Positions 57,780 through 64,000 of a stretch of DNA of 64,000 nt are shown here, one piece after another (the first letter of the stretch is position 1; each line of letters opens with the position of its first letter). This DNA is from Phyllosticta citribraziliensis (taxonomy: Eukaryota). The notes under the pieces were generated by a model, which was not told the DNA's origin, made no database searches, and saw only the letters and a list, made by a program, of their open reading frames with translations. Made by a program: the position numbers and the translations under genes. The stretch spans positions 248,001 through 312,000 of the forward strand of contig NW_027117353.1 of NCBI RefSeq assembly GCF_038025025.1, in the 5' to 3' direction.

Positions 57780-58495
57780 TCAAAATCTCGAGTAGGGCAG
57801 CCTAAGAATGTCAGTACTGGGCATTGTTCCAGAATTCGGCGCACTACTTACCACTTGCCGCGGAGGGTAATCTTGGCCCACTCGCCCTTGTCGTCCGTCT
57901 CCTTCTCAACCTTTGTCGAAAACGAAATGGCGCTCATGATGCCGTCGCCAAACTTTTCATTCAGCACAGCCTTGTAAGCATAGCCGTAGTTTTGGACGAT
58001 TTCGTAGAGACGGTAGATGAGCGGGTCCTTGGGGGGCATGTCGAGAATGCGGCCACGGTCCGGGAAGCCAGAGAGCTGGGTCTCTAGCGTGTCGGCAGGG
58101 ATCTCGAGCAGCTCCGACAACTTCTTGATGTCTTCCGGGGAAGCCCTCGCCTGGCCATAGAAGAGAGCAGCGACAGCAACCTCTTCGCGACCCAGCTTGT
58201 TCGCAATGGCCTCGAAAGACAGGTTCTTTGCCTTCTTGGCCTCGAAAAGAGTGGGGGACGACTCTGGCAGGCGCGAGACCAGAGAGGACTGCGACCGTTA
58301 GCTTGGGCAACGCGCCAGCTGATGGATTTGGCATACGTCGAGCGTGGCGATGGATTGGCTGGGAGCAGTCATGTTGGAAGACTGGTGGAACTGGCGGATG
58401 CTGGAGCTGAAAGCAGGTCGCGCAAGTCTGGAAGCCACGGGAGCGACGACGCGAGGCAGGATTCTGGCAGAAAGAGCAGAGGAAGCGGCAGCCAT
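57780..58495 (-). CDS. CYN1: Cyanate hydratase (cyanase), 3 exons, with N-terminal extension
   Basis: [64 protein letters not shown] and ITLRGKW|LPYSRF*. In-frame ATGs at 58495 and 58372. Confidence 0.95.
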
Positions 58496-59049: not shown

Positions 59050-62000
59050 ATGGAGGGCCTCGACGACGAGGACCATCTGGCCTATGGCGAGTTCCACCAC
59101 CATGACCTGTACGACGGCCAGTCCGACAGCTCTGGACGCGGTTTGGTGCGTGACCTGGGGCGGAGGCTGCTCCACAAGAACCACGGCCCTGATGATGAGG
59201 CGGAGCAGCAGTCTGTGAGTACTGGCCGACTCGTTTCAAACTGTCCTGATTGACCATAAATATCCAGCCCACTCACTCGTATCCCTACACCGACCCTTCC
59301 TCCGCAAACCCCCAATTCACCTTTGACCAACCCGACAACCCTCGTCCCAAAATGACTGGCTTCTTCGAGAGGATCAAGGAAGCCATCGTCGGCGAGGACC
59401 ATGACACCCCTCCCACTCAGCAAGAGTTCGCCGCTGATGCTGCCGATACCTCCCACGAGGGTGCTCAGAGGTACTCCAAGCACCGCTTCCTGAGCTTTGC
59501 TCCTCAGCGTCAGTCTGGCAACGACGCCAAGTGGTTCGTCGATGCCTGCGGATACATGTGGGCTGTATCCGTCGCCTTGGAGCGCGCCCAGGAATCAATC
59601 TGGATTTTGGATTGTGAGACCCATCCGCCTTGAAACTGTGCAACCACGCTGACGACACCAGGGTGGCTGTCCCCCGAACTGTACCTGCGTCGTCCCCCCG
59701 CCAAGAATCAAAACTACCGCATCGACCGCATGCTGCAGGCCGCTGCAGAGCGTGGTGTTAAGGTCAACATTATCGTATACAAGGAGGTATCCCAGGCATT
59801 GACTCGTAAGTTTCTGACCCCAGTTCTCCCATGGTTGACCGATAATTCCATTGACCCCTGGGCCTGGACGTCGCATTCGGATCTTGAGAATATATTGAGA
59901 AAAGAACCCCGCTGATTCATTCCCTTGACAGTCTCCTCGGAGCACACCAAGCACCACCTCGAGGCTCTCCACCCCAACATTGCCGTCTTCCGTCACCCCG
60001 ACCATATCCCGGACGCCAACACCGTAGGCCAGGATCTCATTGATGAGTTTAAGAACTTTTCATTGAGTGCAAAGTCGGCCGCGACCCTGCCTATGGACGC
60101 GCTCAAGGCCATCTATGGCTCTGGCCAGGACACCGTTCTTTACTGGGCCCACCACGAGAAGCTGTGCTTGATTGATGGTACCATCGCCTTCATGGGAGGT
60201 CTAGATCTCTGCTACGGCCGCTGGGACACCAACCAACACTCCATTGCCGATGTCCATCCCGGTGATCTAGACCAGATCGTCTTCCCCGGCCAAGACTACA
60301 ACAACGCCCGCATCATGGACTTCCAGGATGTCACCAACTGGCAGAACAACAAACTCGACCGTGAAGAGAGCTCCCGCATGGGCTGGTCCGATGTGGCTCT
60401 CTCCCTTAGGGGACCTATTACGGAGGATCTCCAGGAGCACTTCGTCCAGCGATGGAACTTCATTTTCCATGAAAAGTACAAGATTCGGAGTGACGAGAGG
60501 TACAGCCGTCTGTCCAAGAAATCATCGGCCCCTAACCCAGCCCCCGAGGACGACTTGGCGTACGAAGAAAGGCAAGGCGGAGGTTTCCAAAAGACGTTTA
60601 CCAACTTGTCTGAGCGCTTCGAGCACGGTGCCGAGCGCCTCGGCTACCACCCTCAACACAACAGGGCTCACCAAGATGAGTACGACGAGCCCAGGGAGGA
60701 GCGTGGAGATGGCTCTGTTGGAATTCAGCTCGCCCGTAGCTGCGCCAAGTGGAGCCACGGTGTGACGATTGAACACTCTATCCAGAACGCCTACATTGAA
60801 ATCATCAAGAACAGCAAGCACTTTGTCTACATTGAGAATCAGTTTTTCATCACGGCTACTCAGGACGACCAAAAGGCCATCAAGAACAAGGTCGGTGCCG
60901 CTATTGTCGAGCGCATCATCCGTGCTGCTAAGAACGGCGAAAACTGGAAAATGGTGGTTCTCATTCCCTCCGTCCCTGCTTTCCCTGGTGACCTCCGCAC
61001 CGACGAAGCTGCCAGCACCCGCGCCATTATGGAGTTCCAGTACAACTCTATCAACCGTGGCCACGGAAAGTCCATTTACGAATGTGTTGCTGCCGAGGGA
61101 ATCAACCCCATGGACTACATTCGCTTCTACAACCTCCGCAACTACGACAGAATCAACGTCAGCGGCGCTCTGCGCGACGCCGAGGACAAGGGAGGCGTCT
61201 CCTACGAGGATGCTCGCGAGGAGCACGACCGCGAGTATGGCGGCCGTTACCAACGCCGTGTCCAGGGCGATGAAGAAGAAGACGGCTACCCAGGAGAGCC
61301 CGGTGAGGAGGAGAGGTACGACGAGTACCAGAGTGGTGCCCGCAGGATGGGTAAGCACCACGGCCTCGCCAGCGGCCGTTGGGACTCGGTTGCGGAATGC
61401 TACATGCTTGGTGGTGAAGACATCAGGAACGTTCCCTGGGAAAATGGCGCGCTCGACGAGATCGAGGCCTTTGTCTCCGAGGAGCTCTACATTCACTCCA
61501 AGCTGCTCATTGCCGACGACCGTATTGTCATTTGCGGCTCCGCCAACCTCAACGACCGCAGCCAGCTCGGTGACCACGACTCGGAGATTGCCGTCATCAT
61601 TGAGGACCCAACGCCCGTCGACTCTGTCATGGGCGGTGAGCCGTGGCGGGCCTCCAGATTTGCGGCCTCGCTGCGCCGCCAGCTCACGCGCAAGCACATG
61701 GGTCTGCTCAAGACGCAGGACTACGAGACTCCCGACGAGAACTACCTGCCCATCAGCGACGCCAACAACATCTACGACTGGGGCTCCGCCGAGGACGAGT
61801 TCGTCATGGATCCGATTTCGGAAGACTTCCAGAGGGCGTGGAACAGCCAGGCCAAGACCAACACCGACGCCTTTGGCGAGGTCTTCCACTGTGTTCCCTC
61901 CGACAACGTGCACACTTGGGAGCAGTATGACGAATTCTACGAGCGCTACTTCAAGGACGACGGCAAGAAGGACGAAGACAACAAGGATGACGAGGGCCGG

Positions 62001-62198
62001 TCCCACCGTCGTTATAAGCGCGGCCACGTCGTTGCCGAGAACTTTGCCCCCGGCGAGGAGGGCGCGCGCCAGGTCAAGGAGATTCTGAGCCGCGTCCGCG
62101 GTATGCTCGTCGAGATGCCGCTGCTCTTCCTCAAGGACGAGGATGTTGCGGAGGAGGGCTTGAGCTTGAACGCCTTTACCGAAACGATTTACACCTAA
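59050..62198 (+). CDS. Phospholipase D with two HKD motifs and no evident PX/PH domains (4 exons)
   Basis: HHEKLCLID and HSKLLIADD..GSANLNDRS, plus IWILDW|WLSPELYLRRP and FVYIENQFF. Introns 59215-59277, 59614-59661 and 59806-59931. Confidence 0.93.
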
Positions 62199-62697: not shown

Positions 62698-63338
62698 ACA
62701 ATCAGGGAGGTCTTGTGAATGGAGTGCGATAGCCGGGAAGGGAGCAAGAATATGGGTACCACAATACTAACATGCTTCGGCTTGCTTCTTGGGATGGAGC
62801 GTGTGACCGTCTTCGTCTGGCGGTGCGCCCACATCGGCGAGCCTAGATCACATCTGACAATCGTATGTCATCTCTTTCTGAATGCACTTGAAAAGGAGCT
62901 GTTGATAGGGATTTGCTTTTTGGTCAACAACAATGTATATGCTGTTAAAGGCGCGTTGGCACTTGGCCAAAGGTTGAATCGAACAATCAACACGGAGCGA
63001 AATTCAGATAGCAATTTCGATGATAACGGAACCCGATATTTGGTTTGTAGTGAAGGCTTTTGTCGCGTGAACGAAGGGTGGTTGGTCGCCCGCTTCGGTC
63101 GACGTGGACAATACCAAGGGGGCGCGACAATACTAACGCAGGAACAATATCAACACCATGCCAAGATGAGAATCACCGTTGATTCTTTCAACGCCACCAC
63201 TTCATTCCATCCGACAGACAAACCCTCGACCATCCAGACCCTCCAAACTCTTTGTTCGTAACCTCGGACGCAATCAGAATTGCCATACTCGACCCAAGGT
63301 CTTGCTACTGCAGGATGGACTCCCAGTTCGAGTATAAA
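62698..63338 (+). promoter_or_regulatory. Promoter of the putative pheromone gene: ACAAT/AACAAT cluster, CTTTGTT and TATAAA
   Basis: ACAAT at 62698, 62761, 62857, 62930, 62983, 63108, 63127 and 63144; CTTTGTT at 63250-63256; TATAAA at 63333-63338. Confidence 0.6.
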
Positions 63339-63515
63339 TCTCGCTCGACTTCGACGACCAGAGACTTTTTTCTTCATCCCACAACTTCCAACTCATTTCC
63401 AAACCAACTTTCCAAGTAAGCCATCCAGCGAGCCTTCTCTCCTGATCTGGCATCATCTGCGGGGCAATCACTCACCAGAGCAAACAGGTTCTCCAACTTC
63501 AATCCAATCGCTAAA

Positions 63516-63722
63516 ATGGTTTCCCAAATCATCGCCGCTCCCGTCAACCAGGGCTCCAACGTCGACATGTACGGCTGCACTGTCCAGAGCAACGAGCCCG
63601 TCAACCGCGGTTCCAACGTCGACATGTACGGCTGCACCGTCCAGAACGCTGAGCCCGTCAATGAGGAGAAGTTGATCCGCAAGGGAAAGCTCGTCGACAT
63701 GTACGGCTGCTCCGTCATGTAA
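63516..63722 (+). CDS. Putative a-factor-class (farnesylated lipopeptide) pheromone precursor with three repeated peptide units
   Basis: 68 aa with no signal peptide. VDMYGC-T/S-V-Q/M occurs three times, and the terminal CSVM* is a CaaX box. AAAATGG start context. Two 57-nt repeats show synonymous differences. Upstream TATA. Confidence 0.8.
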   Translation: MVSQIIAAPVNQGSNVDMYGCTVQSNEPVNRGSNVDMYGCTVQNAEPVNEEKLIRKGKLVDMYGCSVM

Positions 63723-64000
63723 ATCTCCCCACACGACGACACTGCACCTGCGCAACGCTGCACCGAGTAGTGTGCGGCCGCGGCGGTCCCGGATGACTGG
63801 TCCCTCTTCTCTTTCTCGCGCTGCTGCTGTCGTCTGCTGCGCTCCTCGCGAATCCGACTCGACCCTTTCGGACGGCTGTCATCCAATAGTCTTTGCGGAT
63901 ACGGTGTCTGACGAGCCCCTGTCGGATACGAATCCGCCTTTTCCGCCTCGTTCGGCGCGAAGGGGCTGATTTGAGCGCTTCTTTTTCGACACTAGCAGCG

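Follow-up and report, generated by a model that had tools for sequence, protein, structure and literature searches.

We analysed 64,000 nucleotides (nt) of the Phyllosticta citribraziliensis genome (contig NW_027117353.1, positions 248,001 to 312,000; hereafter the window), towards the end of which a short open reading frame (ORF) follows a phospholipase D (PLD) gene on the same strand, with a divergent cyanate lyase gene on the far side of PLD (Table 1). An earlier note, made from the letters of the window, had proposed that this ORF encodes a multi-repeat lipopeptide pheromone precursor of the a-factor type. Its coordinates and translation agree letter for letter with ours: 68 residues, MVSQIIAAPVNQGSNVDMYGCTVQSNEPVNRGSNVDMYGCTVQNAEPVNEEKLIRKGKLVDMYGCSVM, followed by TAA. 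The repeat units that the note had placed at 63540-63596, 63597-63653 and 63654-63719 are also correct; in Table 1 the 68 residues are divided so that each unit closes with its cysteine box. Every unit contains VDMYGC followed by a CaaX-type tripeptide, which is TVQ in the first two units and SVM, directly before the stop codon, in the third.

Table 1. Features of the ORF and of its neighbourhood, in window coordinates.
Feature	Position	Strand	Basis or remark
Coding sequence of the 68-residue precursor, including stop	63516..63722	+	translation, third-position bias, RNA-library contigs
Unit 1: residues 1-24, Cys21 at 63576-63578, then TVQ	63516..63587	+	
Unit 2: residues 25-43, Cys40 at 63633-63635, then TVQ	63588..63644	+	
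Unit 3: residues 44-68, longer basic linker, Cys65 at 63708-63710, terminal CaaX CSVM	63645..63719	+	
Optional 52-nt GT-AG segment, donor overlapping last codon and stop	63719..63770	+	removed in P0122, kept in contig X11
72-nt GT-AG intron in the 5' untranslated region	63416..63487	+	junction matches P. citricarpa model P0122
TATAAAT box, ~180 nt 5' of the ATG	63333..63339	+	sequence reading; putative function
HMG/TR-box-like motif TCTTTGTTC, ~85 nt 5' of the TATA box	63249..63257	+	a lead only
PLD gene, large exon 59916-62198, 5' limit approximate	59250..62198	+	Pfam PF00614/PF13091
Cyanate lyase (CYN1-type) exon, divergent from PLD	57848..58297	-	Pfam PF02560, E 4.4e-32

The repeat is visible at the DNA level as a 57-nt period across 63540-63661 (2.1 copies, 87% matches in Tandem Repeats Finder). 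We then asked how unusual such a frame is in the window. Among 527 ATG-initiated ORFs of 20-100 residues, taken from all six frames, 19 end in CxxX and two in a strict CaaX box directly before the stop codon, and the 68-residue ORF is the sole frame of the window in which a Cys-ending tetramer is present three times. The combination of strict CaaX and repeats is found in one of the 527 small ORFs; a chance origin of the repeated CaaX ORF is excluded.

The first two units differ at five codons, of which two are synonymous (GGC/GGT and ACT/ACC) and three are not (Q/R, S/N and N/A). The VDMYGC core is invariant, as had been claimed, the 18 bases that encode it being the same in all three units. 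The earlier note had also taken the synonymous changes as a sign of selection on the peptide. The changes themselves are real; as proof of such selection they do not suffice, because the third codon positions of the plus frame are also those of an antisense ORF at 63374-63718, in which, by codon arithmetic, both changes are synonymous as well, and they therefore reveal neither selection on the peptide nor the coding strand. Recent duplication or gene conversion fits the identical 18-nt core equally well as selection, and a between-species comparison of sequences would provide better evidence of selection than synonymous sites within the ORF.

Such a comparison is afforded by homologues. A phmmer search with the ORF against 1.84 billion representative sequences returned six matches, one of which (P0124, 5918 residues) was left out of inspection. 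Two of the six are real homologues, both annotated as hypothetical proteins: IWX47DRAFT_94775, partial, of Phyllosticta citricarpa (P0122; E 3.8e-23, 75% identity) and K490DRAFT_65747 of Saccharata proteae CBS 121410 (P0125; E 8.9e-6). The matches P0123, P0126 and P0127 were discarded as unrelated repeat proteins. The relevant stretch of P0122, MVSQTPILPVNEADMYGCTVQNNEPVNQADMYGCTVQNTEPVNQADMYGCTVQNTEPVNQGRAWYLRKGEVAMYGCSVI, contains four units, as does that of P0125, MTPRPIFGCTVQMIPRPIFGCTVQSAEPVNEMIPRPIFGCTVQSAEPVNEAIPRPIFGCTVQKEDF, in which the peptide is different. When the three proteins are aligned, the columns G-C-T-V-Q and E-P-V-N are invariant, twice each, together with the last G, C and V. 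CTVQ occurs in all eight internal units; the last unit of each Phyllosticta protein is set apart by its long basic linker and by reading CSV-. The peptide that precedes the cysteine box varies across the homologues (NVDMY, ADMY, RPIF). Retention of the cysteine box and E-P-V-N around a variable peptide is the pattern expected of a precursor in which the processing signals are constrained and the mature signal diverges.

Closer relatives were found in sequencing runs. In two of them, X8 and X17, the ORF differs at six bases or more; the differences listed amount to V10I, N15H, N26A and R31H, with S14 changed silently, and none falls within any VDMYGC-TVQ/SVM block. Within the repeats (63488-63710) the X8 and X17 contigs break into pieces of 33-112 nt, two of which have seven differences over ~85 nt; such breaks would fit a unit number other than three in those organisms, as in P. 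citricarpa, which has four.

The orientation of the gene was examined by base composition. The third codon positions of the plus-strand ORF are 65% C and 24% G, in the same sense as those of PLD (50/25) and cyanate lyase (40/36), while the antisense frame has 66% G and 22% C, the reverse of the bias of both neighbours. In the 5' untranslated region, joining 63415 to 63488 recreates an exon junction of P0122 (...NQLSK/FSNFNPIAK...) residue for residue, and the DNA run X8 has a 7-nt insertion within this intron (63416-63487), which would be harmless to the plus-strand gene because it is intronic and would shift the frame of the antisense ORF. Codon bias and the direction of the GT-AG intron both support the plus strand as the probable coding strand. 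In the converse arrangement the gene would be the antisense ORF (114 residues; 205 between stop codons), with the plus ORF as its shadow; the antisense frame is the longer of the two, shares its wobble positions with the plus frame and stays open when the substitutions of the relatives are applied. We regard this arrangement as scarcely credible, given the reversed third-position bias, the lack of any Pfam family in that frame, the X8 insertion, which would displace its last ~20 codons, the plus-strand intron and the two annotated homologues, both of which are read in the plus frame.

Contigs from two freshwater metatranscriptome runs cover the ORF, one over 63513-63818 (306 nt, three differences, no gaps) and the other over 63519-63669 (151 nt, no differences), and match it at 99-100% identity. 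The earlier note had named the lack of any transcript over the ORF as a refutation; the ORF is covered in both runs, with DNA carry-over as a possible source. The two contigs start 6 nt apart, with no loose ends, at a point where the DNA run X8 continues, which hints, though weakly, at the end of a transcript. No contig of the RNA runs covers 62900-63512 or the exon of the 5' untranslated region, an absence that carries no weight. Further upstream, the motif TCTTTGTTC resembles what we take to be the HMG-box/TR-box sites used by mating regulators. Three matches occur in the window where 0.58 would be expected, and four of 100 shuffles reach that number; as a site it is not significant.

With regard to position, the ORF starts 1318 nt past the PLD stop codon and its own stop lies 1525 nt past PLD; cyanate lyase is 5.2 kb from the ORF, with PLD in between. 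Over the large PLD exon, identity is 98% in Phyllosticta citrichinensis, 91% in P. capitalensis, 73% in Neofusicoccum parvum and 64% in Saccharata proteae, which places the window in Phyllosticta (Botryosphaeriales, Dothideomycetes); both species with homologues of the ORF belong to the same order. P0125 and the S. proteae PLD are both on contigs of 867,510 nt, which is consistent with linkage and no proof of it. Schmoll et al. (2010, PMC3068285) report that the a-factor genes of Neurospora, Magnaporthe, Chaetomium, Podospora and Fusarium are located close to the cyanate lyase gene or downstream of it. One PLD homologue (P0018, 827 residues, 57% identical) carries the source name 'Cyanate hydratase [Chaenotheca gracillima]', suggesting a fused or mislabelled model of cyanate lyase and PLD, and the pairing may therefore extend well beyond Dothideomycetes.

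We then followed this position into other fungi, using 80 metagenome loci whose encoded products match the 298 C-terminal residues of PLD with 48-69% identity; at least 600 nt of downstream sequence is available in 62 of them and at least 1800 nt in 49. The cyanate lyase (minus)/PLD (plus) arrangement is found in 30 of the 80. A six-frame scan of the 667,456 nt for an aromatic residue, zero to two further residues and C-x-[VIL]-[MQAS]-stop gave 24 matches; 12 of these share the strand of PLD and lie 1598-1758 nt beyond it. These 12 fall among the 49 informative loci (at least 1800 nt past PLD) and end in ...GYGCTVM, ...GFGCCIM or ...GYSCCVM; cyanate lyase is upstream in ten, and in the other two the flanks are too short. 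Clean two-exon models of 32-41 residues could be built in ten of the 12, their phase-1 intron falling directly ahead of the mature part; the splice donor of L067 is GC and not GT, and L070 is outside the clean set. By eye, the encoded proteins start with M-Q-P or M-S-P-S and continue T-rich, like yeast and Sordariales a-factors, and several of the genes have an intron in the 5' untranslated region shortly before the ATG. They also share AAP and T-E-V-P-Q by eye; AAP is found at residues 7-9 of the window ORF, and, among the sequences of Wilson et al. (2023, file S2), the four from Sordariales have T-K-V-P-Q and one from Saccharomyces has AAP.

The search for short CaaX-stop ORFs beside PLD and CYN1, which the earlier note had recommended, was thus positive in 12 of the 49 informative loci and negative in 37. 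A tblastn search with the window ORF against the 80 loci gave no significant match (best E 2.0), although it did point to the ...YGCTVM-stop ends. With a loose filter, no convincing CaaX ORF past PLD was found in 28 loci that were re-examined, and none of the 80 loci contains a tandem-repeat cysteine precursor. Four loci of one contig family (L033 at +4025; L057, L058 and L060 at +5131 to +5134 after PLD) have a frame ending ...YCFVQ-stop and no a-factor-like ORF at +1.6 kb; this frame, 4-5 kb past PLD, may be chance or a displaced gene.

The remainder of the window (1-57000) has an ordinary content. Pfam families there include PQ-loop, histidine phosphatase, short-chain dehydrogenase, SurE, rhomboid and YjeF_N/FDF proteins, as well as AMP-binding enzyme, C2/MUN, bHLH, PPP4R2 and Ysc84. 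Pfam scans of 58 of the 99 window frames of at least 160 residues found no mating-type, receptor or exporter gene.

The 68-residue ORF is a real gene. We believe that it is probably the a-class (farnesylated lipopeptide) pheromone precursor gene of this Phyllosticta species, in a tandem-repeat form of the mfa-1/ppg2/MFA1 type, as the earlier note had proposed. The in silico tests agree on this identity, through size, the CaaX box before the stop, the units, the strand, the RNA contigs, the homologues and the cyanate lyase position; together they are support, not proof.

Two other kinds of peptide product have to be considered. Tandem short core peptides within a small precursor also characterize the secreted cyclic ribosomally synthesized peptides of the ustiloxin/dikaritin kind. 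By inspection, the first 20 residues of the ORF have a ~6-residue hydrophobic run and no basic n-region, and do not appear to resemble a signal peptide; neither KR nor RR (Kex2) sites are present in the 68 residues, the nearest being RK at 55-56. The same 58 frames, within the 64,000 nt, contain no UstYa/DUF3328, tyrosinase or methyltransferase family, and each unit closes with a Cys and a tripeptide, for which that class has no need. We consider a precursor of this kind most improbable.

A real prenylated product with a function other than mating, such as self-signalling, chemotropism or some other use of a prenylated peptide, is unlikely, though less so. The RNA-library contigs come from freshwater metatranscriptomes and not from mating cultures, non-mating use of pheromone in Fusarium oxysporum is cited in the Huntiella paper (PMC10182648), and in Leotiomycetes a conserved small CaaX ORF has already been called an a-factor on thin evidence. 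Against such a function, the gene shares the cyanate lyase neighbourhood with a-factor genes, other fungi carry canonical-looking a-factor genes at the equivalent site, and fast change of the peptide with retention of the processing motifs is typical of pheromone precursors.

If the ORF does encode an a-class pheromone, its maturation can be proposed by analogy with yeast a-factor. According to the account of Tam et al. (1998, PMC2148179), yeast a-factor is farnesylated by Ram1/Ram2, loses aaX through Rce1 or Ste24 and is methylated by Ste14; Ste24 then removes the first seven residues, Axl1 or Ste23 cuts between Asn and mature residue 1, and Ste6 exports the peptide. A CAMQ variant of a-factor has been used in yeast, so Gln is accepted as the last residue. 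By this analogy, the Phyllosticta precursor would remain cytosolic, and its terminal CSVM would be farnesylated by a Ram1/Ram2-type farnesyltransferase. Rce1/Ste24-type proteases would then cleave off SVM, a Ste14-type enzyme would methyl-esterify the Cys, and Ste24-type and Axl1/Ste23-type proteases would trim the N-terminal part; the peptide, exported via a Ste6-type ABC exporter, would be sensed by a Ste3-type receptor of the partner. The internal units would need a further step. Because the internal CTVQ is invariant, we suggest an endoproteolytic cut behind Gln, which would turn the internal boxes into C-terminal CaaX ends, and because Axl1 cuts after Asn in yeast, the conserved E-P-V-N ahead of each variable part may be the mark for an N-terminal (Axl1-type) cut. 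One precursor could in this way yield up to three lipopeptides ending ...VDMYGC(farnesyl)-OMe.

Several observations weigh against a pheromone gene of this form. We know of no protease that could release the internal CTVQ ends, and the ORF also has no KR or RR. The same gap concerning the internal cut exists for HPP1, Huntiella and rhodotorucine A, as these are described (PMC3068285, PMC10182648). The ORF has no significant match to a named or established a-factor in the word-indexed, Pfam, phmmer or ESM Atlas searches: the word-indexed protein search, in the length class of 37-119 residues only, gave no candidate, Pfam gave a sub-threshold 'Apicomplexa microprotein' (19.9 bits against a cutoff of 27) that we take as chance, and the ESM Atlas gave no usable match. 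Its link to established a-factors rests on architecture, short motifs and position. Five of the six changed ORF bases listed in the close relatives are non-synonymous, so that, outside the core, purifying selection has left no overall signature, and the RNA-library contigs give neither strand nor level. The positional argument is itself patchy, because an a-factor-like ORF past PLD is missing from 37 of the 49 informative loci, including all those with the most window-like PLDs (60-69% identity), and the 12 positive loci come from only three sequence families.

A further difficulty arises at the stop codon. The donor GT of the optional segment at 63719-63770 spans the junction of the final Met codon and the stop, with one base from each, and the P0122 model splices out the equivalent, stop-bearing stretch. 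Used in the window, this splice would change M-stop into I followed by an extension of ~80 residues, open to 63969; were the P0122-type splice real and dominant, the protein would therefore have no C-terminal CaaX. The true product would then be a P. citricarpa-type protein of ~150 residues, with repeats that serve some other function. The fusion of ...CSVI to a downstream frame in P0122, the open equivalent in the window, the GT and AG ends of the segment and two indels in the 3' region of the runs that are multiples of three (CCA and GCT) all favour the longer protein. A third indel in that region is a single-base deletion, at 63970, in all four runs, and the RNA-library contig X11 (63513-63818) is unspliced through the segment. 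P0122 is a partial model without a start Met, and its translation takes in the 5' untranslated and TATA region; for these reasons it resembles a longest-ORF artefact. Two of the five substitutions of the relatives in the extension are at wobble positions by codon arithmetic, which gives no sign of coding constraint, and the extension has no Pfam family, the scan having covered only the antisense frame 63377-63991. We conclude that the longer protein is very unlikely to be the true product, and that the segment may represent either an alternative isoform or an artefact of annotation.

A tandem-repeat a-class pheromone gene in Phyllosticta is not new in its architecture, because the HPP1, Fusarium, Verticillium and Huntiella forms are known; the earlier note had missed these established precedents. 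The novelty appears to lie in the fungal class, Dothideomycetes. In the account of Wilson et al. (2023, PMC10569646), no a-factor gene had so far been found in filamentous ascomycetes outside Sordariomycetes. The literature that we searched on Phyllosticta, Botryosphaeriaceae, Dothideomycetes and Lecanoromycetes, with subscription journals mostly outside its coverage, contains no a-factor report, and a search with the peptide motifs of the ORF gave no relevant match. We would put at about even the chances of a broader proposal taken as a whole: that this is the first a-factor gene recognized in Dothideomycetes; that it is the positional orthologue of mfa-1/ppg2 in an ancient cyanate lyase/PLD/a-factor block, which would also hold unannotated single-copy a-factor genes of other non-Sordariomycete fungi; and that the invariant internal CTVQ and E-P-V-N define a processing route, with cleavage after Gln followed by prenylation of every freed unit, giving several lipopeptides per precursor.

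If the gene is a credible Dothideomycete a-factor, an anchor downstream of the divergent cyanate lyase/PLD pair would make the search for such genes tractable, here and in other classes. Dothideomycetes are full of crop pathogens, and with the gene one could test directly how pheromones and receptors pair and whether sexuality is cryptic. The series of three-unit and four-unit precursors with conserved CTVQ and E-P-V-N would also be natural material for studying how internal CaaX boxes mature, a question that HPP1, Huntiella and rhodotorucine A pose alike.

Among known systems, the putative Leotiomycete a-factor (the BCIN_13g03330 family; Wilson et al., 2023, PMC10569646) is also a small ORF, and by its published description ends mostly in CTVM; its near-invariant Cys-rich tail (...CCCIPIPC...), present in over 100 species, is absent from the window ORF and from the PLD-linked genes. 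That candidate looks unlike the Sordariomycete a-factors too, and the region past cyanate lyase and PLD in Leotiomycetes may hold a more typical a-factor. The rhodotorucine A precursors of Rhodosporidium toruloides share with the Phyllosticta ORF the tandem copies and CaaX-like spacers, several prenylated peptides being thought to arise from each precursor (PMC3068285), but they belong to a basidiomycete, in another phylum, and have no sequence relation to it.

The a-factors of Verticillium (five units) and Huntiella (three to five), as given by Wilson et al. (2023, file S2) and in the Huntiella paper (PMC10182648), resemble the Phyllosticta ORF in having near-identical peptides, each with Cys and a CpaX box (SVM, TVM), in a varying number of units; they have no signal peptide, and by inspection none is apparent in the ORF. 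Their units abut, X is Met and the next unit begins with Lys or Arg, whereas in the window the internal X is Gln, a conserved x-x-E-P-V-N follows it and a long basic linker marks the last unit. HPP1 of Trichoderma reesei, which is essential for male fertility and has counterparts in Fusarium (Schmoll et al., 2010, PMC3068285), can be compared by published description only. Like HPP1 and the Fusarium h-type genes, the window ORF is small and has three G-C-(T/S)-V-x copies, the last of which is a C-terminal CaaX, with a polar residue as the first 'a' (CpaX), and like the Fusarium h-type gene it lies in a cyanate lyase region. It departs from the HPP1 consensus, (L/I)GC(T/S)VM, in reading Y-G-C-(T/S)-V-(Q/M), with Tyr before G and Gln at the end of both internal boxes; HPP1 has two Kex2 sites and the window ORF no KR or RR; and Phyllosticta is a Dothideomycete, not a member of Hypocreales.

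The single-copy a-factors encoded by N. crassa mfa-1, S. macrospora ppg2 and S. cerevisiae MFA1/2 consist of one unit in 21-38 residues and have no significant match to the window ORF, with which they share CaaX plus stop and an aromatic residue near the Cys. Proximity to cyanate lyase is common to the window ORF and the Sordariomycete single-copy genes. As judged by eye from their short motifs, the PLD-linked metagenome genes appear to join the single-copy and the tandem-repeat forms.

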